Shown here piece by piece: positions 7,528 to 58,000 of a stretch of DNA of 64,000 nucleotides; the first letter of the stretch is position 1; every line of letters begins with the position of its first letter. The position numbers and the translations under genes were made by a program. Where the stretch lies: positions 10,641,239-10,705,238 of the forward strand of contig NC_057754.1 of NCBI RefSeq assembly GCF_004010195.1, in the 5' to 3' direction. The DNA is from Chiloscyllium plagiosum. Lineage: Eukaryota. The notes beneath the pieces were generated by a model. It did not search any database, had not been told where the DNA came from, and was given only the letters and a program-made list of their open reading frames with translations.

Positions 7528-7946
7528 GTTGTGGTTCTGTTCGCCGAGCTGGAAGTTTTTGTTGCAATCGTTTCGTCCCCTGGATAGGCGACATCATCAG
7601 TGCTTGGGAGCCTCCTGCGAAGCACTTCTTTGATGTTTCCTTAAGGATAGCTGGTCGTGTCGTTTCGTGGCTAGTTGATGTTCATGTATGCGGATTGTTA
7701 GCTGTCTTCCTGTTTGTCCTATATAGTGTTTTGTGCAGTCCTTGCATGGTATTTTGTACACTGGTATTTTGGGACAGACCACTATAAACACTGGAGGAAA
7801 CATCAAAGAAGCGCTTCGCAGGAGGCTCCTAAGCACTGATGATGTCGCCTAGCCAGGGGACGAACGTTTGCAACAAAAACTTCCAGCTCGGCGAACAGAA
7901 CCACAACAACGAGCACCCGAACTACAAATCTTCGCACAAACTTTGA
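7528..7946 (+). mobile_element. Penelope-like element, 5'-truncated with inverted segment; GIY-YIG fragment and two hammerhead motifs
   Basis: Minus ORF VYKIPCKDCTKHYIGQTGRQLTIRIHEH (GIY-YIG). Inverted repeat of about 113 bp (7528-7640 vs about 7796-7907). 12-bp TSD agatttattaat at 7516-7527 and 7947-7958. Confidence 0.85.
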
Positions 7947-8019
7947 AGATTTATTAATTCATTAATTAATTAAACCAGGTGACACATCAGCAAGTTCACA
8001 CTGACGAGAGATTGTTTCA

Positions 8020-8955
8020 GTTTAAAGGATCGGTACTGGGTCCACTGCTTTTTGTCATTTATGTAAATTATGTACAGTTTGTAAATTTGCAAATGACACC
8101 AAACTAGATGGTGTAGTGAACAGCGAAGAAGGTTACCTCAGAGTATAGCAGGGTCTTGATCAGATGGGCCATTGTCCTGAGGAGGGGCAGATGAAGTTTA
8201 ATTCAGATAAATGTCAGATTCTGCACTTTGGAAAGACTTAATGGTAAGGTCCTGCAACATGTTGTTGAACAGAAATACCTTGGAGTGCAGCTTCATAGTT
8301 CCTTGAAAGTGGAGTGGCAGGTAGATAGGATAGTGAAGAAGGTGTTCCGTATGCTTGCTGTTATTGGTCAGTCCATTGAGCATAGGAATTGGATAGTCTG
8401 TGCAGGACAGTGGTTTGGCCACTTTTGGAATATTGCATGCAATTCTGTCTCCCTGCTACAAGAAAGATATTGAAACTTGAATGAGTTTAGAAAAGATTTA
8501 CAAGGATGTTGCCAGAGTTGGAAAGTTTGAGCTTTATGGACAGGTTAAATTGGCTGGGGCTACTTTCCCTGGAACCTGGGATGCTGAGGTTTATAAAATT
8601 ATGAGGGGCTTGGATAGAGTAAATAAACAAGGTCATTTCCCCGCTGTAGGATAATCCAAAACTAAAGGGCATAGGTTTAAGGTGAGAGCGGAAAGATTTA
8701 AAAGGGACATAAAGGGCAACTTTTTCATGCAGAGGGTGGTGCGTGTATGGAATGAGCTGCCAGAAGAAATAATGAAGTCCAGTACAATGACAACATTTAA
8801 AACACATCTGAATGGGTATATGAATAGGAGGGTTTTGAGGGATATGGGCCAAATGCTCACAAATGGGACGAGATTAGTTTAGGATTTCTGGTCGACATGG
8901 ACGAGTTTGGCTGAAGGGTCTGTTTTCCTTGCTGTACATCTCTCTGACTCTATAA
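8020..8955 (+). mobile_element. CR1 RT/3' end, decayed
   Basis: ERFKRDIKGNFFMQRVVRVWNELP and a ctctgactcta tail. Confidence 0.85.
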
Positions 8956-9241
8956 CTACGGATGCTGGAAATCTGTAACAAAGAAAATACTGGAGAAACT
9001 TTGCAGGTCTGACAAAATCTGTGATATAAAAACAGAGATAAGGTCCCTAGTCTGGTGATCATTCATCGGAACTAAAATCAGCTCGGAAATGGTGGTATAG
9101 ATGCTGATTAATGGGTGAGTTGAGGGAAAAGAAAGGCTGATGAATGGAGACAGACCCTCGGGAAAGAGACACTTATTGGGAAGGCTGTGAGCAAATGGCT
9201 GGGAATTTGGGATGGATTTGCAGCGTTTCTCCAATGAGAGA

Positions 9242-9552
9242 ATACTGCCTTATTCGCTGCAAATGATTAATCCCGGGGCAGAGAAAGGGAGGATCCCGCC
9301 ACTCATCTCACAATAGGACCTGGCTGATTGACGGCAGCCCATTGGCCAATAGGAGGAGAGTGGGCGGGGCTGGCAGTGCAAGGGTCCTCCAACCAATGGG
9401 AATGAATGAGGGACGGGGCTAGTGGTACGACATATGCCCGTATGATCCAGCAGAGACTGGGAGTGTAGGGGTATCAGTGTGGACTGGGAGGTTTTATAAA
9501 CACCCGAATTAGAAAGTCCCGCGTTTGCAGCAAACGGGAAAACATACGGGCT
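9242..9552 (+). promoter_or_regulatory. Inverted paralogue of the ZNF promoter module at 14482-14878
   Basis: Collinear reverse-complement similarity: ggatcccgccactca, gctgattgacggca, ggtcctccaaccaat.ggaatgaa, and a 28-nt exact match. Contains CCAAT and GC boxes. Confidence 0.7.
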
Positions 9553-9592
9553 TTCCCTTACTCTCAATGTATCTTCTCCCAGAGACGTGCTG

Positions 9593-9725
9593 ATGAGAAA
9601 CTGTTGGAAAAGCTCAGCAGGTGTCTCAGACGAAGGGTCATTGGATCCAAAACGTTAACTCTGATTTCTCTCCCTAGATGTTGCTAGATTGCTGAGCTTT
9701 TCCAGCAATTTCTGTTTTCGTTTCT
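9593..9725 (+). mobile_element. Short Penelope-derived element with degenerate hammerhead
   Basis: cAGACGAa-gggtc...gatcc-AAAA-cg-TT with inverted gctggaaaagctcagca-like arms. Confidence 0.5.
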
Positions 9726-10558
9726 ATAGAGAGTAATCAGGGCCAGAAATCGCACACTACCATGTTATAGTCCAACAGGTTTATTTGAAATCACAAGCTT
9801 TTACAGCGCTGATCCTTGACTTGACCAAGGGGTAGCAGTGGACCCCGCTGAGTTTTTCCATCAATTGCTGTTTATCTTTCTGATTTCCAGCATCATCCTT
9901 TCTCTTGGTGCTTGTGTGAAAAAGAAATAACTTCTTCCCCTGTGCCCTGTATGGTGCACTGAATTTCCAGCATTTCGGGCTGTCCCTCACTCTGATTGTC
10001 CCGTTCCCTGCGACAAATAAACTCCAAGAGTTCCTTGCACTTGTTGGAAGTGAGGACAGAGGAGACATGGGAGCCGAAGAGCTCAAAATAAATTTGTGCT
10101 TTACAGATACGATAAAGGCACAATAGGTTTAACAAAAAGCTGATCTATATAATTTGTCACCCAACTAGGTAACCAGACATGTGGTGTTTAGAAACATCAT
10201 CAGAACCCAACCCAGAAAACATGGTTTGAATATAGGTAACAGTGGAATCAAGAAACGATTCAGAGAGAGATTCTTGGGAACTCATTGATGATTAACCAGG
10301 CCTAATGAACCAAGAAATCCCTTTTCACAAATCGTGTAGGTGGATAATCTTTACCCAGTGTGTATATGTTGATATACAGTAACGATAAGATACTTTCCAA
10401 AACCTACCCTCCAGTTACAGGGTAACTGTTACAAATGTAAAGAAAATTATCTCCATTTTACAAGCTTTTACTGAGCAGGAATGAACAACATCAGTACAAA
10501 TGATCCAAAGACCACAGTTCATTCCTTGATGTGAGTGAAAGCAAAATCCTTCAGTTGG

Positions 10559-11431
10559 TTATTTGTGACTTTGCTGGTGTCTCAGCAGGCTGGATGATCG
10601 AATGAATCCCTTCCCACACTCTGAACAGGTGGATGGTTTCTTCCCAGTGTGAACCTGCTGATGTGTCAGCAAGTGAATTGCTTGAGTGAATGCTTTCCCA
10701 CACTCAGAACAGGTGAATGGTCGCTCTCTAGTGTGAATTCGCTGGTGTGTTAGCAGGTTGGATGACTGTGGGAATGCCTTCCCACACACAAAACAGGTGA
10801 ATGGTTTCTCCCCAGTGTGAGTTCGCCGGTGTATCAATAGATGAGATGAGCAAGTGAATCCTTTCCCACACTCAGAACAGGCAAATGGCCTCTGCCCAGT
10901 GTGAATTCGCTGGTGGGTCAGTAGATGAGTTGCCTGCGTGAATGCTTTCCCACACTCAGAACAGGAGAATGGTCTCTCCCCAGTGTGAACTCGCTGATGT
11001 ATCAGCAGGTTGGATGACTGAGAGAATCCCTTCCCACACTCAAAACAGGTGAATGGTTTCTCCCCAGTGTGAATTCGCTGGTGTCTGAGCAGTTCGGATG
11101 ACTGAGTGAATCTTTTCCCACAATCAGAGCAGGTGAATGGTCTTTCCCCAGTGTGAACTCGCTGGTGTATCAGCAGTTTAGATGACCGAGAGAATCCCTT
11201 CCCACAATCAGAGCAAGTGTATGGCTTCTCCCCAGTGTGACTGCGTTGGTGAGTTTCCAGCTGGGATTGGTAAAGAAATCCCTTCCCACAATCCCCACAT
11301 TTCCAAAGTCTCTCCCCAGTGTGACTGCGCTGGCGTTGGGACATTTCAGATGAATCTTCACTGACCCTTCCACACACAGACGATTTGTGTTTCTCCCCAA
11401 TGTGAATGGTGCTTTTTCCTTCAATGTTCAA
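10559..11431 (-). CDS. C2H2 zinc-finger protein, 9 intact tandem fingers plus 1 degenerate; first ATG is at 11344 (261 aa)
   Basis: Uninterrupted ORF with CxxCx12HxxxH repeats and TGE(K/R)P linkers. The ORF-track start at 11431 is TTG. No KRAB or SCAN domain seen. Confidence 0.9.
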
Positions 11432-12359
11432 AATCTTGAAATTATCATAAACAGAGTGACTATTGGATTTGGATGTGGTTTTTTTTCTTCAGTCAACCTT
11501 TCAAACAGAATACAAAGTTAGAGACAGAGAAACAAGAAGAAGACACACAGGTTGTGAAACTGCACGAAATTAATCTTGTCATTTGTGGAGCTGACACAGA
11601 GGGAAACTGCTGGATTATCATTAACACTGAACTAGTTCATAAATGTCCTTGAGGGAAGGGGACTAGTCAATGTCTACACAAAATTATGGAAAGGTACAGA
11701 GGCATGAGAGTTGGCAGGGGTGGGATGCATTTTATAGATTTGCAACTCAGTCCTGTTCCTCTTTTCTTCCCATATCTTTCTAACCCTCTGAAGGACTAAG
11801 GAAAAGTGCAGAAGCAAAATGATGGAAATCGAAAATAAAAACAGAAGATGCTGGAGATACTCAGCAAGTCTTGCATCACCTGAAATGCTAACAGATGCAG
11901 GAACCATTGCAACGAGAAGAAACCTTTAGATGATCATACAAAACACCACCATATAGGTTACACGTTAAAAGTCAGAAAATGGGACTTGAGTGATAGGTGT
12001 TTGACGATCAGCATGGATACAATGGGTACATTGTGTTCTACAATTTTATATCAGAGTCTTGGACCCAATTTTGATCCCTGTTTCTCTGAGACTTTTTTTT
12101 AGTAAGCAGACAGGAGTGGCAAGCATTGGATCATTGAAATTAAACATTGGCCTTCACAGTGATAGGAGGAGAGTATGGTGTAGGGATATCCTTCTGTAAG
12201 GGCTACAGTGAGCACACACCTGGAATACCATGTGCACTTTTGTTCTCCTGTCCCTGGATGGATGCCCTGGCCATTGTGATAGTGCAAAGAGGGTTAACCA
12301 GATTGATTCCTGGGATGTCAGGATTGATGTATGAAGAGAGGCTCAATCCTCCTTTAATC

Positions 12360-13450
12360 CTTGACTCTGTCTTTCTGAGCTGCTGACTGCATCACTAACT
12401 AGCGTTCTACCTGCCAATTCCTGATCTGAATCTGACCAATTAAGGCCTGTACTTGGTTTCCAATCCCACTGCCACACTAGTTTTCAAACCTCACCAACTG
12501 AACTAGCAAATGCCCCCAAGAGGACACTTGTTGGAGCTTGTCCAGGCTTGCACAGGTCCCACCTTGCCCAGACACAGTCCCAATGCCTCAAAAATCTAAA
12601 TCTTTTATGGTACACCATTTCTCCAGCCACACATTTATCTGATCTATCCTCCTATTCCCGCTCTCACTAGCACGTGGCACTGGGAGTAATTCTGACATTA
12701 TTACATTTGAAGTCCTGCATTTTAATAAAGCTTCTCTCTTCTGATATTTATTTTCCAGGTCCTCATCCCTTTGTTTACCTGTGTAGTTGGTACCTGTGTG
12801 TTCCATGACCACTGCCTGTTCACCCTCCAGCTCCAGAATGTCCTACAGCAGCTTCAAGATATCCCTGATCCTGGCACCAGGGAGGTAACATACCATCCCG
12901 AATTCATGTCTGTGGTCACAGTAGTGCCTTTCTACACGCCTTGTCATTGAGATGCAGGGTTGTTTTGACGGGATACATTTTCCTCCCCTTTTGTGCAGCA
13001 GAACTACCTGTGATGCCATGAATTTCGCTGTTGCTGATTTTATTTGAGGCCACCCCCAATCAACACAACAGTACCCAAAGTGGTATATCTGTTTCAGAGG
13101 GAGATGACCGCTGGGGACTTCTGCACTTCATTTTACTTTGTCTGGTCACACATTCCTTTTCTGTGTAATTCTCACTTGCAGTGGGACTAACTCGTTATAG
13201 TTATTGTCCATGACATTCTCTGCAGAACAGATGCTGATATTGAGCCCACCCACAGCTCGAGCTCAGAAAAGCAGTTAGCCAGAAGCTGCAGGTGTACACA
13301 GTTCCTGCTCATATTCCCATCAGGGACATTGAAAACTTTCCTTAATTCTCACATTGAGGTGCGCATCAAGGGTCTGAGGTGTCCTATCATGACTTCTTTC
13401 TGAATTAAGCTAGTTATTCTCATTAAGAGAATTTAATTCAGCTATGGATC
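12360..13450 (-). mobile_element. Old CR1 ORF1 (esterase-like) remnant between the ZNF CDS and its promoter
   Basis: VIMSELLPVPRASESGNRRIDQINVWLEKWC (12588-12812) matches CR1 ORF1 SGNH-like segments elsewhere in the window. Confidence 0.7.
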
Positions 13451-14369
13451 TTCCTTTATTTCAAACAGTTCTGTTCTAATCAAAACCCCTACCTTTACAA
13501 AAGCTGATATGTTACACTTTAAAACAATAAGAAAACAGCCATTTACCAGTTGGCTGTGTCCATGAGGACCTTGTCATTTCTGAATTGAGACTGAGCACCA
13601 CACTCGATCTTTCAGCTTCAACTTCTCCCTGCCTCACCTGACACTCTGTTTCAAAGCACTCAACTCCAATGCACTCTCACCGAGTCAAGCAGCACTCACA
13701 GCGCAGCCCTGTCATTATAATCTGTCCTCAAACTTCTGGGCTGTTCGAATGCAGTTCAATGGGAGCTCAGAGAACAGCATCTCTTCTTTCAATTCAGCCC
13801 TTGTTAACACTGCAGACTCAACGTGACTTCCAGCAGGTTCGGCACCAACGTAGAGTTGTCAGGGTCTGGAGCACTACACCTGAAAGTATGCTGGAATTCG
13901 AGTCTATGTGGAATTTGAAAGGGATGTTTGCTGATAATTATAGGTTAAAATCGTGGTGGGTGACTGGGACGAAGCATGACAGTTCTTTCAAAAGTTGAGG
14001 TGGTATTTGTGCAAATCGGTGCCTCCGTGAGGCCAGAATCTCCTCCTTCAGCTGTAGGACCTAGAACTGAACACATAACCTGGGGTGATCTGACCACAAA
14101 TTTGAACATGTTGCTCCTTTTCAATTTCCAAACAGATCAGAATTACTTTTCCACAGATAGCAGAGACAAACCTTGTTATTTCCACAGTTAAGTGCCAGCG
14201 ATATTCATATCCTGCTGTCTGTCAGAACTTATTTTGAGAATCCCGGTCTGCAAACTATTCTCAATTGATATCCTGTAAAACGAATTCATAAAAGAAATAT
14301 CACTGTCAGTCCCGGATTAGAGATCTAAAGAGAAACATTTCTCTTGCTTTCAATTTGCTTTGTTGACGT

Positions 14370-14880
14370 TTCGCTTTGCCCCGCTCCGCCCCCCACCCTG
14401 GAGGAAGATTGCACATGCGCACTGCTGCACCTTGCCCCCAATAAAAATGGCCGCAGTAAGCCAGGGTCTATGACCGCCTGAGGCCCGCAGACGTTTTCCC
14501 GTTTGCTGCAAACGCGGGACCAACAGATTCTAATTCTGATCGAAGGGCCTAAACTGAGTGTTTCGAAAGGCTGCCAGTCCAGACTGAGTCCATTTTTCGC
14601 CCGCCGTCCGCTGCTTCCTCCGCTTTCTCGATTGAATCTCCCACACTCATTCGCCAGCGGCACATGGTCACGTGTAGTTGTGCTTGCACCGCCCTTCGTT
14701 CATTCCTATTGGTTGGAGGACCAGTCGTATCGCGTGTCTCGTTAGTCCCGCCTCCTCCCCTCCTAATGGTCGAGCAGTTGCCGTCAATCAGCCGGGCCCC
14801 ATTGCGAGGTGAGTGGCGGGATCCGCCCTCCCTCTGCTCTGGGGTGAGCTTCATTATTCACAGTGAATGGGGCAGCATCA
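14370..14880. promoter_or_regulatory. CpG-rich promoter, probably of the ZNF gene, possibly bidirectional
   Basis: Local CpG enrichment. GC boxes (ccccgctccgccc, cccgcctcc), NRF1-like tgcacatgcgca, YY1-like aaaatggccg, E-box gtcacgtg, CCAAT (attgg). Minus-strand acceptor ttttacag near 14273; plus-strand donor gag|gtgagt near 14809. Confidence 0.7.
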
Positions 14881-15439
14881 TAGAATACAGGGGACTGCTG
14901 GCCGTTCAGCCCACTGAGGCTGTGCTCGACAGTCGCTGCAAATCTATCCATCTCCTCTGAGCTTTGCCGTAAGGCTGCAAATCTTTCCTTGAATATCTTT
15001 TGAGTTTAACTGCTAAATCTGCATCCAGCTGACGTTCAGACTGTTCCAGATTCACGACATATTCACGTTTTCACTCTGCAATATTTGTTAGTTATTTGAA
15101 AGCTGTGTTCTGTGGATACCAAATATTGTGACAAGATTAATAATTTCTCTCTGCAAATGAAATACTCTGGAAGCAAATTTACACCTCCACTAAATTACAG
15201 CTTAACTTACTCCGCTCCAAGGAGAAAAGTCCGAGCTCTGCTACTTCTCCTAAAAACAGAAATCCATCTTTGCTGCTCAGACCAGTATTTCTTGTCCATT
15301 TTTATTTAACTTTATAGTTGTGGCAAAATGCCTTTTCGAAATGTGCATTGCATGTGTTGTAAGTACACCACAGTACTGTTTGGATGCTAATGTCCTCAGT
15401 GTCACATCCTCCCTATCACTGCAATTCACTCCAGTCTCA

Positions 15440-18180: not shown

Positions 18181-19089
18181 CTTTCAATTTAAAGCCTCCA
18201 GTTACTGATCTACCTGTTAATGAACGGATCTTTCCTATCCATTCTCTCTGGACTCTTCACAATTTTATCACTTTTAATTAAATCTCACCTTGGTCTCCTC
18301 TGTTTCACAGAAAACATCCCCAGCCTATCCAATCTTTTCTCACAGCTGCAATTCTCCATTCCTAGGAACACCCTAACCAATCTTCTCTGTATCCTCTCTG
18401 GTGTGATCACATCGATCCTGGAATGTGGGGACCAAAACCCATTAGTTTTGTTTAGTTGTGGTCAAACTAGTTTTCTGACAGTTCTAGAGTCACCTCCTTG
18501 TTCTTATAGTTGTCCCAGACACAACAAGTGTCCTGATTTTCCCACATGGAACTGGATATGTACTCCATGATATTGGGATAGACTACCATTTGAACTAAAC
18601 CAAAATAATATTCAGATTAAAATGAATAGAGATTCATCAGCTACTCACCAATCAACTTCCTCCATTATATAGAAGGTACCTTACTGTTTAGAGAGTTCAC
18701 AAAAGTATTTTTCTTAAGATCTTATTATCTAAATATGGCAGATTTTGGTTTGCTGAAAAATTTAGTTATCTTCATGATACAATCCCTTGTAGGTTAGCTT
18801 TATCTTCATCAGCTACGTTTTGTGAATTGAACACTGACTGTAATTCTGTTGGCCATGTTCCTGACTGTTTGAGTCATCCAAGACATCATGCAATCTGCAG
18901 CTTCCTTTCTCATGTCCACCACACGGCCAACTACTGTGATATCTGCAAATGTCTTCACCATGGCCACTAAATTGAAGTCTAAGTCCTTGATATCCACCAC
19001 AAAACTGCAGAACCCCATTGGAAATGGGCAGCCAGTAAGGTTTACTTCTGTTGGCAGTTAACAGCAGCAAAGAACACAGAACCGAAATG

Positions 19090-19240
19090 CTGCTCTCACA
19101 GGTGAATTTGCTGGTGTCTCAGTAGGTGGTGTGACTGAGAGAATCCTTTCCCGCACATGTACAGTCCATCCTCAGTGTGAATTTGTTGCTCTTTCAGCAG
19201 ATTCTGTTTGCTTTTAAACCCCTTGCAGTTAGAATCTTTT
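19090..19240 (-). pseudogene. Degenerate C2H2 ZNF remnant
   Basis: Minus strand encodes CKGFKSKQNLLKEQQIHTE and [22 protein letters not shown] fingers with deletions. Confidence 0.65.
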
Positions 19241-32262: not shown

Positions 32263-33401
32263 ACAGAAGCAATCCACCTTCGAGTGAACCTGAGATTTGC
32301 AAATTGTTCTCAAAGTTTGCTACAAAGTATGGTTCTTGGTCAGTACACATTGTGAAGGAGCACCAAGAGCCCACTATACTCCAGACCCCACCCAACGATG
32401 CAATTTTTCCACAACTCCCCTTCAGGCTGAGTAATAGCTGGGGTTTTGTTTGTGCTCACACTGAGCATATCCCATCCACTGGACCAGGAGGAATCTGCAT
32501 CATTGTTTTGACAGGTAAAAGAAACCAGGAATACCACCACGATCCACACACAATGGACGTTGTTCAAAAGTCGACAACATCCCTAGTCACCTATCAGCCC
32601 TTTCAGTTCTATCTACTCCAGTGTGGGCACACATCTTAGAATCATCCGTGAGGCTATTCAGCCCATTGAGTTTGCACCAATGTCATCACACAGAGAGTGG
32701 GGAGTCTGTGGGATTCTCTGCCACAGAAAGTGGGTGAGGATGTTTTTGAGGTGAGGTAGGCACTGTTCTTCAGGCTCAAGGTATCATAGGGCCTGGGGGA
32801 GAAAGCAGGAACGAGGGACTGAGTTGGACGGGAACGAGGGACATGATCAGCCATGATCATATTGAAAGAGGGAAATAGGCTTGAATGGCTGGATGGCATA
32901 CTCTCGCTCCTATTTTCTATGTTTCCATGTCTCTGACTAATAATGGAGGTAAAGAGGTTTGGTTTGGTGCATGATGGTGGTGGGAAGGAGTTGGGAGAGT
33001 GAGAATGTGGAGACTGGGTCACAAATTGTCATGACATAACAAAATGGCCAGTATAGGCTGGAAGGATGGAGTGGCCTACTCCTGCTCCTAGTGTCTGTCT
33101 GTTGGTAGAAAACTCAGTGACTGACAATTTTAAATGAGTGAGAATGGAATTTCTAATGAGTGGAGTGAACGTCACTGTTTAGCTTGTCTGAGCTGTACTT
33201 CGACTGTTTTAGTATCTTGTTCATTGTTAGCAATTGCTATGGTGATGATGACAGCTGTGTGTTGGTCCTTCAGCTACAGTTCCTTCTAGTGTCTCCATCT
33301 CTGCCACACCCCTTCTCTCCCCCTCCACCCACTGTCTCCACCTCCAGTCCCTCTCTTCCCCCCAGTCCCTCTCTCCTCCACCATTCCCTCTCTCACCCTA
33401 C

Positions 33402-34185
33402 CTCCAGCCTCACAGCCCTCCCTATCTCTGTAATCTCCAGCCTCACAGCCCTCCCTATCTCTGTAATCTCCAGCCTCACAGCCCTCCCTATCTCTGTAAT
33501 CTCCAGCCTCACAGCCCTCCCTATCTCTGTAATCTCCAGCCTCACAGCCCTCCCTATCTCTGTAATCTCCAGCCTCACAGCCCTCCCTATCTCTGTAATC
33601 TCCAGCCTCACAGCCCTCCCTATCTCTGTAATCTCCAGCCTCACAGCCCTCCCTATCTCTGTAATCTCCAGCCTCACAGCCCTCCCTATCTCTGTAATCT
33701 CCAGCCTCACAGCCCTCCCTATCTCTGTAATCTCCAGCCTCACAGCCCTCCCTATCTCTGTAATCTCCAGCCTCACAGCCCTCCCTATCTCTGTAATCTC
33801 CAGCCTCACAGCCCTCCCTATCTCTGTAATCTCCAGCCTCACAGCCCTCCCTATCTCTGTAATCTCCAGCCTCACAGCCCTCCCTATCTCTGTAATCTCC
33901 AGCCTCACAGCCCTCCCTATCTCTGTAATCTCCAGCCTCACAGCCCTCCCTATCTCTGTAATCTCCAGCCTCACAGCCCTCCCTATCTCTGTAATCTCCA
34001 GCCTCACAGCCCTCCCTATCTCTGTAATCTCCAGCCTCACAGCCCTCCCTATCTCTGTAATCTCCAGCCTCACAGCCCTCCCTATCTCTGTAGACTCCAG
34101 CCTCACAGCCCTCCCTATCTCTGTAATCTCTAGCCTCACTGCCCTCCCTATCTCTGTAATCTCCTCCAGCCTCACAGCCCTCCCT
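33402..34185 (+). repeat. 33-bp minisatellite, about 24 near-identical copies
   Basis: Unit ctccagcctcacagccctccctatctctgtaat. Confidence 0.97.
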
Positions 34186-34609
34186 GTCTCTCATTACTCC
34201 AACTTCATGAACATCTGAGGTATGTGCATTCCTCTAATTCAAGCCTGATAAGGACAACCCATTTTTATTTCTCCAGTTGAAGGCAGTTTCAGATTCCTCT
34301 CCCCGATCTTTAGAATTTCCATCTGAACCCCTCCACCTCTCTACCTCACTTCCCACCTGAAATGATTGACTCCGATGAGTCACCTCCTCTAATATCTCCT
34401 TCTCTGACCTGGTTTCAATTATTCGCTCAATATATCCCTATATTAATTGTATGCTGTACAGAAAAAGGCTCTGCAGCCATCAAGTCTGTGACAGTTAAAA
34501 ATACCCAATTAAATATTCCAATCCCATTTTCCAGCAGTTGGCCTGTAGCTTTATGAGCTTTCACAAGTGTGCATCCAAATATATCTCAAATGTCTCGGAT
34601 CATGTCTTT

Positions 34610-38180: not shown

Positions 38181-38945
38181 ACAGGACTTCTGCACCTGCC
38201 ACACTTAGAGACAGTGAGGTTCAGTGTAATTGTCACTGTGTGATGACATCACACACAAGACCATGGATCATCTGTGTCTGTGAAAACTAGAAATCACCAC
38301 ACATTGTGAAGGGTGGGAGAGAGCCCGAGACGGTGCACAGCTGCTATATTGACAACATTGGATCAATGAGAGGGTGTGATGTTGGGGGTTATAAAGTATG
38401 AGGGCATTTGGAAAATTAGTCAGAGCTAACTGCCCATCGAGCCGGTGAGCAATGGCCATGGGAAGAAATAAACATCTTGCTCTCGCAGAAATCTCAGAAG
38501 GCACTATCTATCAAAAGGTACATTTTCCTGTAAAAGCAATAAAAAAATAAGAAGACGACCCAGAGAGAAGACAGCAGAATTGAAAAGATGGAAGGAAGTA
38601 ACAGATTCGAAAGACCAGAAGGAAGACAGCATAAGAGACTGTGTGGTCTTGAGATTAAGTTAATATAAAGCTTGATAATTTTGTTACTGAAACAGCATTT
38701 TTATAGATTTGGGGTCAGACACTAATTACTTCAGAAAAAGAGGGCTTAGCTTATTAGTTTCTGTTTAGTGATGTCTGTTAGAGTTAGGAAAGTAAATTGT
38801 TTTTTTTTCTTTAAACAGTGGATATCAAGGGTTTTCATTCACTCACTCAGACTTTAACAGATTACAAAGCAAGATGAATTTTTCTGGGTGTTTTGGTTTT
38901 ACTTAGCAGAAGGGTTCAACATCTTGGGTGCTCAACCTCTGGGAT

Positions 38946-39285
38946 TTAGACAGCGTTGTATAGATCGGGTCTAGGATTTGGACAGGATTGGATAGATCGG
39001 GTCTGGAATTTGGACAGGATTGGATAGATTGGGTCTGGAATTTGGACAGGGTTGGATAGATCGGGTATGGGATTTGGACAGGCTTGGATAAATTGGGTCT
39101 GGGATTTGGACAGGGTTGGATAGATCAGGTCTGGGATTTGATTAGGGTTGGATAGATCGGGTCTGGGATATGGACAGTGTTGGATAGATTGGGTCTTGAA
39201 TTTGGAGAGGATTGGATAGATCGGGTCTGGGATATGGACAGGGTTGGATAGATTGGGTCTGGGATTTGGACAGGGTTGGATTGAC
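38946..39285 (+). repeat. 32-bp tandem repeat, about 10 copies, in the LTR element leader
   Basis: Unit gggtctgggatttggacagggttggatagatc. Confidence 0.95.
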
Positions 39286-41931
39286 CTGGACAGATCAAGA
39301 CCAGGATCTGTACAGATTTGGACAGATTTGAACAGACTTGCCAGCAGAATTTTAAACACACATGGGGATTAATGTGCTAGATCTTCCAATCAAACTTAGG
39401 TGAGAAAAAATATGTTTTAAGTTCAACAATTATAGTTGGTTAGATTAAAAGTGAGAGAACTGGCACTTTCAGTAAGTAAATGTTTTCTGGGCGTGGAAGA
39501 AGTGACATTGGGAGTTTTACAAAAAGTGAGCAAAGAAAAGCTATTGCAATTGGCAGACAAGCTGGAGCTGGGGTTGCCTGTGTCTCTGAAAAATGGTGAG
39601 GTTATTGCTGAAACAGCGCAACATTTAAATGTGCTGGAAAGGCCATTAGAATCTTTGGAAAAGCCTAAAATTCAATTGCAAATGAAGCAGCTTGAATTTG
39701 AGGAAAACGTAAGGGAGAGAAAATTCTTAGCGGAGCAGAGAGAAAGAGAGAGAGCGAGAGAATGAGAGAGAGAACAAAGAGAGAGAGAGAGTTTGAACTT
39801 CAGAAGTTGCAAATTAGTCAGGGAAGTCAAATGGAGATGGAAATGGAGATGAAAGGAGAATGTAAAGGTGTAAACACACATGTTAAAACATTGCCACATT
39901 TTTGATGAGAAAGATGTCAAAGCCTTTCTTATTTCATTTGAAAAAATGGTTAGGCGGATGGAATATCCAGAAAACTTGTGGGTAATGCTAGCTTGGACTA
40001 AGGGTGGTAGGCAGGGCTAGAGAACAGCGCTGTCATGGATGAGGGGTCAAGAGATTATAAAAATGTCAAACAGGCTATTTTGAGTGACTCTGAATTGGTA
40101 GCAGAAGCATATAGACAGTGGTTCAGAAACATAAAGAAGGAACCAGTTATCTCTATTATTGAGAGATGAAAGTATTTACACTCTTCCTGACATTTTACCT
40201 AAAAGAGTAATATTTTGTGCAATAAATGGATAGAAATTTAGCGTTCCCCTGTGTAAGATCAGGTTGGAGAGCCAAATCAAGACCGGGGAAGTGACAGTGG
40301 GAGTGATTAATAGAATGTCAGTTCCAGGAATACAGTTTGCCCTTGAAAATGACCTAGCAGGTGGGGTGATGCCTACTATCATAAATTATGGCAAGAAGGA
40401 AAAACTAAAGAGAAAGACAAAGGAGTTGAGGTTCAGTTAGCAGACACCCTGTTTGATAAAATAGTACAGGGAAAATCTGAACAAGTAAAGGGTCAGGCAG
40501 CGGTATTTAGTCCTGAAAGGCTAATGGACTTACCACAGAAAGATGAGGCGATAAAAGATCTCTATCATGATGCATACTCAGAAAAGGAATCAGAATGCAT
40601 TCCCGAGGGTTATTATCTTAGAGATAGAATTCTAAGATGAAAATGGAGACCATGGCAGGTTAGTGCAGAGGAAAAATGGGTGAAGTCCAACAGACTGTGT
40701 CACCTGTAGCATACAGACAGGAAGTATTGCAGGTAGCAGATGAATTACCAGTAGGAGATCATCTAGGTGTGGGCAAGATCTCAGGCTAAGGTACAAAAGC
40801 ACTTCTGTTGGCCTGGACTGCATAAGGATGTGGTTGAATTTGCTGTGCATGTCATACATGCCAAATGGTAGAGATGCCACAGGCAGTAATAAAACTAGCA
40901 CCTTTCTTACCAATTCCCGTATTTGAAGAAGTTTTCATACGGGTTATGATTGACAGTGTAGGTCCCCTCCCTGAAACTATAAGTGAGAACCAATATTTGC
41001 TAACAGTAGTAGTTGTGTCTACCAGATTTCCGGAGGCAATTCCATTCCGGATTGTTAAGGCAAAAGAGGTGGTGGAGGAGTTGGTAGCTTTCTTTATCCA
41101 GTACCGGTTACCTAGGGAGATTCAGTCAGATCAAGATTCTAATTTTACTGCTAAACTATTTAAGAAAGTCATGGATAATTTAGGAATACAATGCTTTAAA
41201 TCAAGTGTGTATCATCCTGAATCCCAGGGAATTTGGAAAGTTGGCATCCGACCCTAAAGGTATCTTATTCATATTTTTTGTCATTACAGATGCCATAAAT
41301 GAATCTTCTCAGTTTATTCATTTTGAGTTAACAGTTGGACACCAAGTGAGAAGGCCTTTGAAATTAATTAAAGAAAAATTGATAGGACCAAAGTCAGAGA
41401 CCTCACACTTGGATTATTTATCAGAGGTGAGGGAGAGTTTAAACCAGGCAGGGGAATTAGCTAAACAGCACCTGAAGAGGCCACAGCATAGAATGAAGCA
41501 TGTGGCAGATAAAAATTCGAAAATGTGGACATTTTCCCGCTGGGATAACGTATTTGTGTCATTTCCAGTAGTAGGAGCTCCCTTCAAAGCCAGGTTTAGT
41601 GGTCCCTATCAAATTGAGAAAAGTGGAGTCAGGTAAACCATCTGGTAAAGATACACAGAGGAAAAGACTGTTTCAGGTATGTCACGTGGATATGTTGAAC
41701 CCTTACTATGATAGACACAGGGAAGTGGAGAACCAGGTGTCAGTTACTGCCCAGCAGAGTGAGGAATCAAATCCAGATAACGTGGATGTGCCTCAAAATA
41801 AGTTAAATAATGAGGGAGTCTTTGAAGAATGGGATAGGATAGTCAGATATCTGTCTCAGGAGCAAAGAACCGGGTTGAAAAGTTTGTTGCAGCAATATGA
41901 GGACATATGTAGGAATAGAATGGGGAAGACT

Positions 41932-42871
41932 CAACACTGGAGCTCTCCAGGGGTACGTACTAAGCTCCCTACTGCACTCACTGACTACTCATGATTGCAT
42001 CGCCAAATACCAGACTAATGCCATTTACAAGTTCGATGATGCCACCACCATAGTCGGTCGATTCTCAGATGGCGACAAAACAGACTACAGATGGGAGGTG
42101 GAAGACCTGGAAAAATGATGCATTGAGAACAACCTAGCTCTCAATGCTGGCAAAACCAAGGAACTAATTGTTGACTTTCAGCGGGATGTTACTCATGCCC
42201 CCCTACACATTAACAGCACAGAGGTGGAACGAGTGGAGAGCGTTAAGCTTCTCGGAGTGGTCATCCACAACAAGCTTTCCTGGATTCTTCATGTGGATAC
42301 ACTGTTTACAAAGGCCTAACAACATCTCTTCTTCCTCAGGCAGCTGAGGAAATTGGGCATGATGGCGAATACCCTCGCCAATTTTTATAGGTGCACCATC
42401 GAGAGCATTCTGTATGGATGTATCACTGCCTGGTATGGCAACTGTACCATCCAAGATCAGAGATGGTTACAGAGAGTGGTGAACTCGGCCCGGACAATTA
42501 CAAAGGCCAAACTCCCATCTATAGAATCCATCTACCAGGCCCGCTGTCAAAGAAAGGCCGCCAGCATTCTCAAAGATCCATCCCACCCTGGCATTGTTTC
42601 TCTACAACCTCTACCATCAGGGAGAAGGTACAGAAGCCTGGACACACACACCAGCCAGTTTTGAAACAGTTTCTACCCGACTGTTGTTAGAATACTGAAT
42701 GGACTCATAAACTCTTAACATTCGCCTGTACCTGTGTTTTTGTTTTTTGCTGCTGTTTAACTATTAATTACTTATCTATGCTATTTAACCCTGTGATCTG
42801 CCTGTATTGCTCACAAGACAAAGCTTTTCACTGTGCCCTGGTACACGTGACAATAAATTCAATTCAATTCA
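41932..42871 (+). mobile_element. Rex1/Babar-like LINE 3' fragment
   Basis: YKFDDATTIVG; LANFYRCTIESILYGCITAWYGNC; LPSGRRYRS; (aattc)n tail; TSD aagact at 41926-41931 and 42872-42877. Confidence 0.85.
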
Positions 42872-43358
42872 AAGACTGATGCTATTGTGCATAATGTGGA
42901 AGTAGGGAACGCTGTTCCATTAAAACAACACCCCCACAGGCTTAATCCTCTCAAAGCCGCACAAGTTCAGAATGAAGTGGACGTGATGTTCAATGAAGAT
43001 ATCACCGAACCAAGTCAGACCGAGTGGAGTTCACCAATCATGTTAGTTCCTAAACTTGACAGAACTCAACAATTTGCTGTGAAACATCGGAGGGTCAACA
43101 CCGTTACTAAAGTCGACTTATATTCAATATCCAATATCCAGTTGCTGGAGGACTGTTTTGAGAAAGTTAACCCAGCCCTTACATCACAAGCTTGGACTTA
43201 CTGCGTGGTTATTCGTGGGTACCTTTATTGGAGAAAGCAAAAGAAGTTTCTGTGTTTGTAACCTCAAATGGGCTTACCAATTCACAGTGATGCCACATTC
43301 CAAAGGCTCGTGAACAGATTTGTGGCAGGATTCAGTACTTGTCAGTTTATATCGATGA

Positions 43359-49485: not shown

Positions 49486-51169
49486 AGTTAATGACCTGCG
49501 TATTTCATAATAATGGTATCAAGATTTAGTGAAAAAAAATACTAAAAATGACCCTATTTTCTCATTATGATAGTTCATTTCTTTCTTAAGGGGGGAGGGT
49601 GTTACGAAGTTAAAAGAGTGTCTAGTCACTTTAAGATACAAAGTGATTTTCTGAATTTAAAGTAAAGCAGCAGCTGCCAGTATATAGAGCAGCTAAGAGA
49701 TGGCCTGCTCCAAGATAGATATATGTGACAATTGGCTGTTAAATGGATTCCTGAATTTTGGTTGCTGTTTCGACAATGATTCAAATTTAAACAATTAATT
49801 TAAATTATGCCCAGAAAACCAAAAGCCAATTTATTTGAAGTTTATTGTATTGACAACATTGGACTAATGAGAAGGTACAATGTTGGGGGGTATAAAAGAC
49901 GAGGGCATTTGAAAAATTGGTCAGAGCTAACTGCCTCATAAAACTGCCATGCGAAGAAATAAAAATCTTGCTTGTAAGGAAATCTCAGAAGGCACTAACT
50001 ATCAAAAGATACGTTTTCCTATTAAAGCAATAAAAAGTAAGCAGTTAAAAAAGTAAGGACTCTCCCCAGGGAGAAGACAACAGAATTGGAAGGACAGAAA
50101 GAAGTAACAGATTTGGAACACTGGATGGAAACAGCAGAAGAGACTGTGTGGATTTGAGATTAAGTTAATTCAATGTTTAATAATTGTGTTATTGGAACAT
50201 CATTTTTATAGAGTGAGGGTCGGACTGTAGTTAGTTAATGAAAAGAGAGCTCAGATTTGTTAACAGTTTCTGTTTAGTGTTCACTGCTGGAGTGAGGGAA
50301 GGAACTTGTTATTTTTTCTTTAAACAGTGGGTTTTCTTTCAATCACCCAGATTTTAACAGATTACGAAGTGAGGCAAGCTTTTCTGGGTGTTCTGGTTTT
50401 ACTGAGCAGAGGGATTCGACCTCCATGACCTAACAAAGCCTTGAGGTCATGTGACCTCTTCCTGTAGAACATAAGCTGAAATGGACAAAAAAAGTCCCTC
50501 CTGTTGCAACTTTTCCTTCTCAGACCTCTTTCTGTGTGACCTTTTGACAGGAAGCCCTGTAACAGATGTCACAAACATTTGACTGAAACATTCAGAAGGG
50601 CAACGATAATTAATTCAAAAGAAACAATTTTCCACAGAAATAAAGGCTGGAGATTGGCAATCAGGCAAATTGCTAAGAGAGTCAGTGCAGTCATTTGTGC
50701 CGACTGGCCTTCAGCTGCAAAGATGTTGGTGTAAAGGGTTTTGTTAAGGATGGGTGATGGTGAGGGATTGATATGTGAGAGGGACAGGCCCACAGAAAGA
50801 TAGAGAATCGTCAATAATACGAGCAACATGGGGGAGTTTTATGGTCAGTAATTTTGTGGGAACAGATTCAAGTGACGAGGAGGTGGATCTGATAGACATG
50901 GGCTCTGACAGGGCATGACAGGAGGGAAAGTGGGGAACCACGTCAGGTCTGGGATTGGAGAGCTTTAATAGATGCATGGCCTGGTGAGTACATGAACAGC
51001 CATTTAAGGTGAAGATGCAGGACAGGGAGAATCCTACAAAAGGATGTAACTTGCAACCAAAGTATTATAATGACCTGACGTCATTAAACACAACACTGAT
51101 TTATGTGACTTAATGCAAGCTTTGCTTTCAGTGCTGGATGCGATTAAGAGCAAAGTCCAATCACTGTTG

Positions 51170-52555
51170 AGCCATGTGATCTGTCTGCTGGCTCAGCAGG
51201 GTGGATGAGTGAACTAACTGCTTTTTAAACACAGAGCAGGTGAATGATTTCTCCCCAGTCTGAATTCGCCAAAGTTCTGAGAGTTGAGATGATCACCTGA
51301 ACCCAGTCCCACAGTGAAAGTACCTGAAAGGTCTCTCATCATGTGAACATGTTGATGGGACATCAGTTTCACAGAACTTCGATAGCGCTTCCTACACAGT
51401 AGGCATTTAAGAGGTCTCTACTCAATGTGAACACATTGATGATAAAACAGTCCCTAGGCGTTTGTGTTGTGATTCCCACAAGGAGCCATTTAAAGGGTGT
51501 CTCCTCAGTGTGAACACATTGATGACAAGTCAGTCCCAAGAGTGTGTGTAGTAATTCTCGCAGTCTGGGCATTTACACAGTGTGAACTTGCTAGTGTCTC
51601 AGCAGGTTGGATAACCGAATGAATCCCCTCCCACACTCAGAGCAGGTGAATGATCCCTTCCCAGTGTGAACCTGCTGGTGTTTGATGGGGTTAGAAGATT
51701 ACCAGTCCCACAGAGAGCGCACATGAACAATCTGTCCTTAGTGAACGTCTTGTCCTGGAGCTTTTGTAGCATTTGTCACAGACTGGGAATTTAAAAAGGT
51801 TGTCAGTGGGGAATCCAAGATGGCGGTGACCCAGGAAGACTGAGTCTATAGTGCTCCTCCCAAGACCTGGGCACAGTGGGTCACCTACCCCCTACCAAGC
51901 TCACCAAATCATTTATAAATCATTTATAATAGTTTAGTAACTGAATTAGTGGTTTAATATTACATTTAAGCTACATTTAAGCAACTTTATCCTAAGTTAA
52001 AATGACTAAAGGGAAGGGAGCCCGCAGCTCTCAGCAAGCAGGAACCCCTCCCCCACACTCTCCAGCTGCAGCAGAGGCGTCCACAGCCGCCCCGGGGGAC
52101 TTACCTACAGTAGCAAGNNNNNNNNNNNNNNNNNNNNNNNNNNNNNNNNNNNNNNNNNNNNNNNNNNNNNNNNNNNNAGTCTGGACTTTTAAAAATTCTG
52201 TGTGAATACATTGGTCGAACAGCCCCCTGAAATGTTTCCAACAGTTCCCACAGTCCAAGCATTGACATGGTCTCTCCTCAGTGTGAATGAGCTGGTGTTG
52301 CAGCAGGTTAGATGACTGAGTGAATCCCTTCCTACACATTGAGCTGGTGAATGGCCTGTTACTGGTGTGACTGTGTCCATGTATTTCCAGCTCAGAAGAG
52401 GAAATGAATTCCTCCCCACAATCCCCACATTTCCACAGCCTCTCCCCAAAGTGAGTGCGTTTGTGGTTTGTGAGTATGATGATGGCTGAAGCTTTGTTCA
52501 CACATGTAACACGTGTACAGTTTCTCTCCACTGTGAACAGGCTTTTCCCTTCCAT
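51170..52555 (-). pseudogene. C2H2 ZNF pseudogene, interrupted by an L1-like insertion and a gap
   Basis: MEGKSLFTVE...WKCGDCGEEF..QSSNLLQHQLIHTEERP. Frameshifted or degenerate fingers continue at 51170-51800. Confidence 0.8.
51808..52117 (+). mobile_element. L1/Tx1-like LINE 5' end (5'UTR and ORF1 start), rest hidden in the gap
   Basis: Starts ggggaatccaagatggcgg (YY1 motif) downstream of a TT/AAAA site. ORF MTKGKGARSSQ from 52002. No catalytic domain is visible. Confidence 0.55.
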
Positions 52556-53305
52556 GTTCAATTGTGATAAAGTTCTGTTTGTGATAAATTGGGCAACTCC
52601 ATCAAATCGAGGTGTGATGGCTAAATCTTCCCTTTCTGATATCCTGTGAAGTCAATGTCAACCAAAACAAAATAAATTGAGAGGGAATCAATCACATGAC
52701 TCTGGCTTCTCTGTGAGAATCGAGAGAGCGAAAGGCAGGGAATTAAAGGTAGCGATTTTAGACACTTACAACTTGATGAGAACTTTGCCAGAATCTTCCA
52801 AACACTTGGTCTCCACCGGCAAGAAGGAGCAGGTTAACAGGTAGATGTGAACACTATCACGTCCAAGTTTAGATAAGCAAGATAAAGAGCAGTGTTCCAT
52901 TGGCTGACAGTAAATTTATGCAGGACACTGATTTAAGATTTTGGGCCAGAGTTATTGGGAGATTTGAGAAAGGAATCTTATATTACTTTCATTTTACTCA
53001 ATACTTACATTCACAGGCCAATAGTATTCATTGCTGAATATATAATAACTCAAGTGACTCTGTAAGGTGTTGATGTGTTGTTTGATTTGAGTTTTCGAAC
53101 TGCAAATTCTTTTCAAATGTCTTGTCAAATAAGCTTACAAAAACTACTGCTGTCAGTCCAGGACAGAAATTAATTAAAAATAAGCAGTTCTCTTTTTTAA
53201 AACTGTATTTAGTTGCTTCCCTTCTCACCTCCTGCTCATAATCTCCATTCCTCTCAGTTCAAGAGAATGATTCACAACATTCTCTCTCCTGGCCTGAGAT
53301 TACTG

Positions 53306-53951: not shown

Positions 53952-54287
53952 TCAAGTGCATCCTGTCTAGTATCCATTGCCCCTACAGAGGCAGCTGTGA
54001 ATTGCGGCTGGTCTTCAGGAGAAGCTTTGACTTGTCCCATTTTGTAAAAATTCGGGGTCTGCAGCATCCCACAAAATGTTTAAAAAGCCTCTACATTCAA
54101 CCGCTCAGTCCATCGCCTCACTGTGACTTTTTGTGGAGATGAAAGACAAAGCCTCAGGATTGCTCCCACTGTGCATGCTCCAGACTGTCGATATGGGCGA
54201 AGGTACTGAGCTTGCACAGTGAACATCACTGCAGGAGATAGGGGATATTCACAAGCGTTGGGAATGCTGGGTTTAGAGGCCACCATT

Positions 54288-55041: not shown

Positions 55042-58000
55042 TGTTGAGGAGCAGGCCAGACCCCCTCAAAATATTTCAAGAAGGTAGCTCCGACCCTATC
55101 TTTTTTAGTTGTTTCAAGCATATGTAAGATGGATATTCCAGGAGTGATACAGCTGGTCAAACCACTCAGTTTTAAGAATTCATTTACAGGCTACTAAATG
55201 AAACACATGCAAATGAAAATGGAATTAGCGTAACAATCATTTGAAAACATGACCCTCACGATATCCCCCGCAACTTAACAAAGAGCTGTTACATCTTCCT
55301 GCAATATCCCATAAACACACCCCTTAGCAAAAAGATAAATTCAAACACAGGTTCTTACAGGAGAGGGAGATGGCATAAAAGATCTGTCAGGGATCATTGG
55401 CTAAAACATGGAACCTCTTTTTGCCAAGCAGCTTCTCAGGGTCCCCAGCTGAAAAACTAAACCAAACTAGAAAAATCCCTGAACTGGGAGAACTGGCCAC
55501 TCCACTTTCATGATACAATTTTTTTTTAAAACCTAAAATCCCTTTTCCCTGATTGTTGCCTTAGGCAGGATCTGTTCGTCATAATCAAAGTCACCTAAAC
55601 CCAGACAAATTGGAACTCCTGCCTTTTGAAAAAAAACCCAAGGACAACATCACTTTATTAAAGGAGTAGCATCCCCCCTTAAAAAAATCAATATCCAAAG
55701 ATGGCTTTATTTTAAAATTCCCTTAATCTTACACTGTTAGTATCCAACAACACATATATATTGCATTGACTATAAACATGCAAACATGCACTGCTACATT
55801 CTATTTCAGTCCATTTACTCCTGCTACTGTACACCTCTGCTTCCTATCCAAGTCTCAACAATGCATCCACAATCACATTTTCTCATCTCTGCCACATGTA
55901 CAATTTTAAAATTGAATGGCTGAAATAACAAGCTCCATCTAAATTGTCTGGAATGTTTGCCCTTAAATTTTTCCAAAAACCCCAATGGATTATGATCAGT
56001 ATATATGACAGTCTCAGAAACACTACTGGCAACATTAAATGTTGAATAGTCGTAATGGCACTACCATGCTCAATATCTCCTCCTCAGTTGTCGAATGTTT
56101 CTTTTGATGCATCTTCAATTTCCTGGAGAACTACCCGATAGGTCCTTCTGTTTTGTCGTCGCCTTCCTATAAGTACTGCATGACACTCCCATTGATAGTT
56201 TGGCATAATTAGGTGTGTCTAATACTGAGGCGGTGGTCAACACATCTGTCAAATGCATTCCGACAGTCTACCGTCCATTGCAACAGCTTGGCTTTCTTTA
56301 GTAATTCAGTGAGTGGAGCAGGTATTCAGCTAAAATTCGGTATGAATTTCCAATAAGATCCACTCAATCCCAGGAATCGTAGTACTGTTGTTTTCGTTGT
56401 TGGTATGGGAAATTCCCTGCTAGCCTTTGTTTTTGTATTCTGTGGGGCCATTTGTCCATTTTCAAACACATTGCCCAGAATGGTGACTTGGGCTTTGGCA
56501 AATTGACCAGATTTATCATCAAACCTGTCTTCTGAAGTCACTTGAAAAATTGTTCTTTCTATGTGTGACTAAAAATCACGAGATCATCAATATAAATTAC
56601 ACCGTAGAGTAATTCGGAAATGACCTTATTGGTTATTCTTTGAAATGTACCTGGTGTATTTTTCGTACCAAATGGCACGAACATTTAATTGATACAGTCT
56701 ATTTGGTGTTACAAAGCCAAAACTGTCTTCACTCTTTCTGACAAAGGTACCTGCCAATATCCTCCGAACAAATCCCCAACTTAGAAATATAAGTTGCTTG
56801 TCCCACCTTTTCAATACAGTCTTCCAAACATGGAATCGGATATGAATCAGACTTTGTGACTGCATTGACATTGCAAGAGTCCACACACAACTGTTGGGTA
56901 CTAGCTGGATTTGGCACCATTTCGGTGGGTGCTCTCTAGTCACTGTAACTCACTTCGATTACGTCGTCTTGGACCATGTGTTCAATCTCCTTTTGAACCT
57001 GTGCCAACGTTTAGAGGGTTAAGCCTTTAAGAATGTTCATTAATCAAAACAGCATCTCCTATATCTACATCTTGCATAATTAGGTTAGTCCTTCTCACTT
57101 TATTATCACATGTCTCCCCATGTGATTGTAATGACTCTTTCAGGTCATTTCAATCTTCCTCTGGATGGTAACTGAATAATTTATCCCAATTTTTGACAAT
57201 TTCCTCATTGTCCAATTTAATTTGAGGAATGTCCAATTCAGAATTGTCTGACCTTGGTTCTTCACTCTGTGTTGTAACCAGTAATACAGTCTCCTTTTAT
57301 TATCCTTCCCTGTCAAAATACCTTTTGACCATATTCACATGACACACTCTTTCTGTCTGGAATCCTTATCCAATAGTTCAACTCAGTCAATCTCCTTCTG
57401 ACTTGTCAAGATCCACTAAACCTTGCTTTTTTAAGATTCACCTATCATTGGAAGTAACACTAACACTTTATCTTTAATAGTAAAATTGGGATTTTAATAG
57501 TAAAATTTAATTTCTTGACTGCTTCCTGTTTCATTGTACACTGTGATATTTTTCATAGCTGACTAGCCAACTCCCTCACTCTATTCAATTGTTCCCTAAA
57601 ATCTGGCACCTACTCCAAATATGTGGGCTCTGAATTTTGACTCCCTAATTTCTCCTTAATCAATTTTAGTGTTTGTCTCACTTAATGCCGCAAACACTAA
57701 TTCAAATGGGCAAATTTAGTTGATTAATTTGGTGCATCTCTGATGAGAAAAGGTACAAACACAACTTCTTTATCCCAATCATCTGAATGGTCTTAACCTA
57801 TGAGCCCTCAACATGGTCTTGAATGTCTGGTGCCACGTTTCTAATGTGTCCTGCAATTCTGGATGGTACGCAGTGGATTTGAATTGTTTTATTCATAAGC
57901 TGTCCATAACTTCTTTGAATAATTTTTGATGTAATATTTGACCCTTTATCTGATTGGATCTCTATGGGTAGTCTGTATCTAGTGAACAAAATTGGAGTAA

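Follow-up and report, generated by a model that had tools for sequence, protein, structure and literature searches.

The 64-kb stretch of Chiloscyllium plagiosum DNA analysed here, called the window throughout, is repeat-rich vertebrate DNA in which a C2H2 zinc-finger (ZNF) gene on the minus strand lies between two inverted copies of a promoter-like module, copy A past its 3′ end and copy B at its 5′ end. The analysis drew on the window, the literature and four public sequencing runs (of 24 listed), here named X1, X9, X14 and X21, which were compared with positions 8950-15400 at 80% likeness. Motif names denote matches to consensus words and do not come from a motif library. The features on which the argument turns are the following:

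9242-9552, plus strand: copy A, an eroded paralogue of the ZNF promoter and 5′ leader (alignment, motif scan)
9516-9543, aligned with 14520-14493: block of 28 nt, 28/28 identical between A and B, containing an inner palindromic box (9522-9536) and three CpG (BLASTN)
9553-9900, no strand assigned: repeat stubs of high copy number that separate A from the gene (depth of 496,374 in the DNA run over 9598-9813)
9765-9785, minus strand: probable poly(A) signal at 9785 with cleavage zone 9765-9768, within a repeat stub
9774-11497, minus strand: exon 2 and 3′ untranslated region (3′UTR), 3′ end approximate (RNA-like contigs 9774-10533, 9845-10533 and 10507-10818; acceptor at 11497)
10559-11341, minus strand: ZNF coding sequence, 260 amino acids from the first in-frame ATG, nine C2H2 fingers (open reading frame (ORF) and Pfam)
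11498-14171, minus strand: probable GT-AG intron of 2674 nt (contig breaks)
14172-14593, minus strand: exon 1, non-coding, with five short upstream ORFs and its 5′ end at or beyond 14593 (X9 contig 14169-14593)
14482-14878, minus strand: copy B, a promoter rich in CpG that takes in the start of exon 1 (alignment, motif scan, RNA)

Copy A is a reverse-complement paralogue of copy B, as an earlier reading of the sequence alone had claimed. BLASTN aligned 9272-9422 with 14843-14683 (119/161 identical, E 4e-24), and the local alignment of the two copies scored 260, against 47±8 for shuffles (n=200). The homology is bounded by 9242-9551 and 14878-14483, its identity under three scorings is 228/289, 237/310 and 242/307 (77-79%), and the longest exact runs are 28, 15, 15 and 15 nt. 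The claimed orientation was equally borne out, with B sense to the gene, as its RNA shows, and A antisense at the 3′ end. Near-identical contigs of the DNA run X1 span 8950-9662 (depth 8.9, one letter differing from the window) and 12869-15165 (depth 8.5, 10 differing letters); because they cover both copies plus their flanks, this layout is not an assembly artefact. The outer flanks of A and B may also be alike (3/300 shuffles), a merely suggestive result that comes from a single 16-nt match. Run X14 showed no differences over 760 nt and hence carries no cross-species information.

The gene enclosed by the two copies is a tandem C2H2 ZNF, with nine fingers in 260 amino acids joined by TGEKP-type linkers. 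Its open frame (11488-10559, minus strand) encodes 309 amino acids and matches zf-C2H2 at E 8e-60. No KRAB domain was found among the 25 Pfam hits of this frame, although minor exons elsewhere could still carry one, and the ORFs of exon 1 measure only 6-36 codons; the gene is thus not classed as a KRAB-ZNF. A homologue search with the ZNF protein returned generic multi-finger proteins, and the exact protein had no match (0/2) in the protein collection searched.

Run X9, labelled 'DNA?', behaves as RNA and provided the transcript structure. Its perfect or near-perfect contigs, among those listed, tile from 9845 to 14593, with depths of 29.7 and 38.9 on exonic contigs (the latter at 14169-14593), 6.8-11 on intronic ones and 10.3 on the distal 3′UTR, dropping to 0.78 at 9166-9381 and to 0 at 15214-15400. 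If the minus-strand transcript is spliced between 14172 and 11497, an assembly should branch at 14169 and overlap as far as 14198. X9 breaks exactly there, whereas the DNA-run contig is unbroken at 14169/14198. We infer this splice from the breaks, the joint itself being absent among the joints listed (15 of 700). Raw single-cell reads of X21 in the unique 3′UTR have a single orientation, matching the coding strand. The gene probably uses the poly(A) signal at 9785 and the cleavage zone 9765-9768, where reads are multi-copy. This probable site stops about 210 nt short of A, and between them lie the repeat stubs, which we take to be Penelope-like fold-back ends, a label not drawn from a repeat library.

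Copy B is the working promoter of this gene, in agreement with the sequence-only reading, since exon 1 starts inside it, downstream of the CCAAT box at 14712 and the E-box at 14669-14674. It further carries GC boxes and an inner palindromic box (14500-14514), and at 57% GC, a CpG observed/expected ratio (o/e) of 0.91 and 397 nt it is a CpG island (GC >50%, CpG o/e >0.6, at least 200 nt). It coincides with the 5′ end of the transcript, as the X9 exon contig reaches 14593 and depth is 0 at 15214-15400. Transcription runs leftwards from B, the start site probably lies near 14600-14650, and the motifs make factors of the NF-Y, SP and USF types candidate binders.

Some further details of the transcribed region were recorded. 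Within exon 1, a GC box (14391), an NRF1-like word (14411) and a YY1-like word (14444) fall in the stretch 14380-14455, which might be an additional or an earlier start site; all three words have been lost from the homologous DNA at 53.2-53.3 kb. Position 14274 resembles a strong minus-strand splice acceptor and has its counterpart in the paralogue at 53.1 kb, yet the X9 contig passes it unspliced. The X9 contig 13665-14198 is seven letters shorter than the window span (seven gaps), likely an intronic indel allele, and position 10471 is polymorphic. The repeat stub at 9765-9785 provides many loci with a poly(A) signal, visible in X21 as loose poly-T ends (586 and 431). A donor-like word on the plus strand at 14807 led us to consider that the module fires in the opposite direction. 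This is not supported, as X9 reaches a depth of only 8.4 over 14566-14781, of which exon 1 explains 5.0, and raw reads number 0; weak divergent transcription could nevertheless occur.

Copy A has lost part of what B retains. All nine gaps in the A/B alignment are losses from A, 86 nt in total. Both CCAAT-type words (9346 and 9393) and two of the four GC words are kept exactly in A, including the GC box at 9362. The E-box is deleted, and the YY1-like core and the CHR-like word near the start are altered or lost. The sequence-only reading was therefore right that CCAAT and GC boxes occur in both copies, but A is not an intact promoter copy. Its statement that CpGs persist in both also stands, with an o/e of 0.60 in A and 0.91 in B against 0.26 for the whole window. 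Depending on the alignment, A retains 7-9 of 16-21 aligned B sites, compared with 102/560 in a control of 70 repeat pairs of 70-85% identity (Fisher p ~0.001 for 9/16). A looks like a promoter that long escaped methylation and whose sequence is eroding today. The split between A and B is old, and we conclude nothing finer: a pedigree rate of 7e-10 per generation (PMC10587355) dates it to ~10^8 generations, too old to trust.

Three explanations had been offered for the inverted pair. In the first, A is what remains of the promoter of a plus-strand ZNF that has been lost; in the second, it acts as a convergent antisense promoter; in the third, the two copies are the ends of a cassette of about 5.6 kb. 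The first fits best: deletions are confined to A, core elements are gone from it, a finger remnant occurs on the plus strand, and another ZNF locus shares the 5′ region. The second is not supported by the RNA examined, which is shallow, and the third is not supported by the arms. We thus read A as a relic paralogous promoter left by ordinary ZNF gene turnover, with a probability of roughly 0.58. The loci that bear on this reading are:

7957-8011, plus strand: short C2H2 finger remnant, on the same strand as A (BLASTN 76% over 55 nt, E 2e-6; nhmmer only E 0.2)
51164-52651, minus strand: broken paralogous ZNF (pseudogene)
53005-53291, minus strand: homologue of 14176-14427, upstream of the pseudogene (score 84, 0/300 shuffles; nhmmer E 6e-4)
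53953-54217, minus strand: possible third module copy C, heavily decayed, sense to the pseudogene (150/239 identical)

Copy C is collinear with 14412-14689, directly past two repeat insertions, and keeps 2/16 aligned CpGs. Anchored in this way it ranks 7, 37 and 11 of ~6240 windows for three overlapping queries (best 7 of 6242), a best p of ~0.006 that is post hoc. In DNA depth, the core bin of B stands at 2.5 times unique and the adjoining exon-1 bin at 1.9 times. Collectively, these results go part of the way to showing that the module belongs to a ZNF duplication unit. The remnant at 7957-8011 sits 1.2 kb left of A, and the other clear finger remnants are all on the minus strand. Decayed minus-strand fingers were seen at 10275-10404, in the 3′UTR of the gene, and at 19054-19233, isolated 4 kb upstream of B.

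Under the relic reading, the module would be copied along whenever genes of this shark ZNF family duplicate, with B serving as the CCAAT/GC-box/E-box CpG promoter of a two-exon gene. A would then have been the 5′ end of an oppositely oriented paralogue, produced by an ancient inverted duplication or by an inversion in the array. It may have stayed unmethylated long after the split, preserving its boxes and CpGs. The plus-strand gene body behind it would subsequently have been lost, with repeat stubs filling the junction, and small deletions would later have eroded A, removing the E-box and the start-site region.

Several observations weigh against this reading. The remnant at 7957-8011 lies upstream of A, so it cannot belong to A's own gene, and the DNA behind A shows no trace of a gene body: 9900-10280 resembles the DNA downstream of B at chance level (76/300 shuffles) and 9553-9600 marginally (13/300). 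Unanchored, copy C is not significant (79/500 shuffles, 81/682 windows, no nhmmer match). The CpG excess weakens without the 28-nt block, to p 0.02 or 0.27 by alignment. CpG and non-CpG transitions range from 5/38 and 17/137 up to 8/35 and 14/133, against 0.276 and 0.120 in the control, a ratio of ~1.1-2.2 by alignment that at its upper end reaches the 2.3 of the control. CpG decay is also lopsided, with 5-7 B sites turned into TpG or CpA in A and two in the reverse direction. That the 28-nt block is perfect (p 0.014-0.028) is a hint of ongoing constraint or of gene conversion. Finally, the limits of the homology nearly coincide with two inverted palindromic boxes with multi-copy DNA, as expected of a transposon. 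Together with their inner counterparts, the boxes are:

9251-9265, no strand assigned: outer palindromic box of A, with 7-1-7 arms
9522-9536, no strand assigned: inner palindromic box of A, within the 28-nt block
14500-14514, no strand assigned: inner palindromic box of B
14855-14869, no strand assigned: outer palindromic box of B, matching high-depth DNA-run contigs

These end boxes are the one unexplained lead of the analysis, and we know of no factor that matches the palindromic 7-1-7 box. They lend weight to the foremost alternative, an unlikely one in our view, in which the module is an old non-autonomous DNA transposon similar to a miniature inverted-repeat transposable element (MITE), with palindromic terminal repeats. 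B would have been exapted as the ZNF promoter, and A would have inserted independently or by a local hop, its opposite orientation being due to chance. The 15-nt pattern, which was derived from these very sites, has four matches in 64 kb, exclusively at the ends of A and B, where 0.13 are expected. When each copy is compared with its own reverse complement, the best match pairs one end with the far end (A 9242-9265, 0/200 shuffles; B 14490-14512, 9/200). DNA-run depth at 14838, 14844 and 14855 rises to ~128, 593 and 2311 times unique, and the majority letter at these positions is that of A in 3/3 cases (among the difference rows listed, 40 of 1291). All four bins that contain an end stand at 12-410 times unique depth, against 2.5 times for the interior of B, figures in which summed contig depth does not equal copy number, and three of the four bins also contain other repeats or the ZNF 5′ region. 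Against a MITE-like origin, the two ends match each other at only ~55-60%, yet the same inner end is 28/28 identical between copies. No target-site duplication longer than 4 nt was found at A or B, although a short old one could have decayed. The core, moreover, is low-copy, like the adjoining ZNF exon, with the qualification that at 80% likeness older full-length copies would escape.

The refuting case put forward by the sequence-only reading, a dispersed repeat unrelated to ZNFs, fails for the core (~2.5 times unique depth) and holds partly for the module ends. The known MITE-derived regulatory elements, for example those of Xenopus, likewise are short non-coding units with inverted likeness at their ends and multi-copy ends; the module differs from them in its lack of a target-site duplication, its low-copy core and the failure to obtain a family consensus. 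Scans for exact motifs gave 0 and 0 in metagenomes and 0 in viral contigs, where shark DNA is not expected, and the 13-nt core turned up in one unrelated Drosophila preprint. A MITE origin and ZNF-linked duplication are compatible: the ZNF family could have recruited an ancient element as its promoter.

In convergent, tail-to-tail arrangements, cis-antisense promoters are promoter-like DNA facing the 3′ end of a gene, and A faces the ZNF 3′ end in this manner. The next alternative holds that selection maintains A because it tunes the ZNF gene in the germline or early embryo. A would do so as a local enhancer or as a convergent promoter of antisense RNA, by way of sense-antisense pairing or of interference with transcription. 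In its favour, A has diverged by 21-23% and still retains CCAAT and GC boxes, the 28-nt block and many CpGs. A TATA-like word lies at 9494-9501, and small signals occur at 9382-9597: 5.63 in X9, 4.31 in X14 and, with the strand that antisense RNA would have, 0.34 in X21. These signals equal what cross-matching of the 28-nt block produces (5.04 expected for X9; in X21, ~73 bases at A against 69 at B with the orientation reversed), and a repeat reaches the bin. Over the 432 unique bases of the 3′UTR (10030-10461), X21 depth is 1.87 and 2.72 on the gene strand and 0 and 0 on the plus strand, and at 10471 it has 16 reads on the gene strand and none opposite. X21 is a poly(A), 3′-biased and shallow data set of which ~2% was read, and tissue-restricted activity could escape it. 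Contigs of X9 and X14 carry neither strand nor expression level, and A is covered by 0 of 8 X9 and 0 of 7 X14 pieces among those listed (23 of 48,709). The loss of the E-box and start region also argues against a maintained promoter. Unlike known convergent promoters, A yielded no detectable antisense transcript in the runs examined, which suggests little or no activity of A in the samples covered. We regard its maintenance as doubtful.

A bolder combination of the two preceding ideas is a long shot. In it, the family promoter would derive by exaptation from the end-module of a transposon, and a single dimeric factor would bind its paired palindromic boxes at tens to hundreds of ZNF genes. Inverted copies, A among them, would be retained behind ZNF genes as convergent promoters of the germline or embryo and would damp these genes by antisense transcription, giving a family-wide KRAB-independent control circuit.

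Least probable by far is a 5.6-kb cassette, bounded by A and B and mobilised, inverted or duplicated as a unit: although the inverted geometry encloses the whole gene and a 7-nt direct repeat (9239-9245 and 14882-14888) has a length reached in only 4/300 random pairs, a composite mobile cassette has near-identical inverted arms and a flush target-site duplication, whereas these arms are 77-79% identical with nine gaps and no exact run above 28 nt, the inner end carries the best-kept block, and the 7-mer does not abut the arms cleanly, as it overlaps A, sits in a repeat tail and occurs seven times in the window. Arms so diverged are poor substrates for homologous recombination. No strand-changing joint was found among the joints listed (15 of 700), a weak point as all those listed fall in the finger array.

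Two other layouts were considered. The capture of A between two Penelope-like arms is not supported, as the flanking stubs are inverted but only loosely alike and such stubs are very abundant. A large mirrored duplication of 1-9 kb and 15-24 kb was rejected: its inverted matches, with identities of 66, 77 and 89%, are between pieces resembling long interspersed nuclear elements, and collinearity is lacking among the finger remnants.

Elsewhere in the window, a CpG-rich repeat with inverted arms lies at 7530-7930 and is presumably a Penelope-like fold-back. Tandem repeats occupy 33237-34295 (33-nt unit, with identical copies over long stretches and several open frames) and 38874-39353 (32-nt unit). 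Judged from translations and sequence only, broken integrase- and reverse-transcriptase-like frames at 40838-43261 and 55990-57500 are of the long terminal repeat retrotransposon type. The 64-kb window had no tRNA or Rfam matches.

The locus resembles birth-and-death clusters of C2H2 ZNF genes, such as the mammalian KRAB-ZFP (PMC5363842) and cyprinid FiNZ-ZNF (PMC10547256) clusters. Like these, it has multi-finger genes with pseudogenes and fragments nearby, and shares the pattern of spread via segmental duplication with related units on either strand; unlike these, it shows no KRAB match, has a non-coding exon 1 and belongs to a shark lineage. Zebrafish ZNF subsets have a promoter architecture in common; in the main text of PMC10547256, 'shark' and 'chondrichth' have 0 occurrences. 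Paralogous promoters lose likeness with age, those of the CpG-island type retain common factors, and non-methylated islands mark promoters across vertebrates (PMC10100218 and PMC3583005). What sets the present pair apart from duplicated CpG-island promoters is that one copy is gene-less and aimed at the 3′ end of its sister's gene. A search of mostly open literature gave no paper that treats this module or the promoters of shark ZNF genes, and shark repeat libraries may already name the element.

Copies A and B form a natural footprinting pair, which points to the CCAAT boxes, the GC boxes and the 28-nt palindromic block as the likely working parts of the promoter. As a relic, A is one more footprint of the birth and death of ZNF genes. 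If the palindromic boxes proved to be family-wide, or A an active convergent promoter, this locus would offer a first handle on the control of KRAB-less ZNF genes in cartilaginous fishes.

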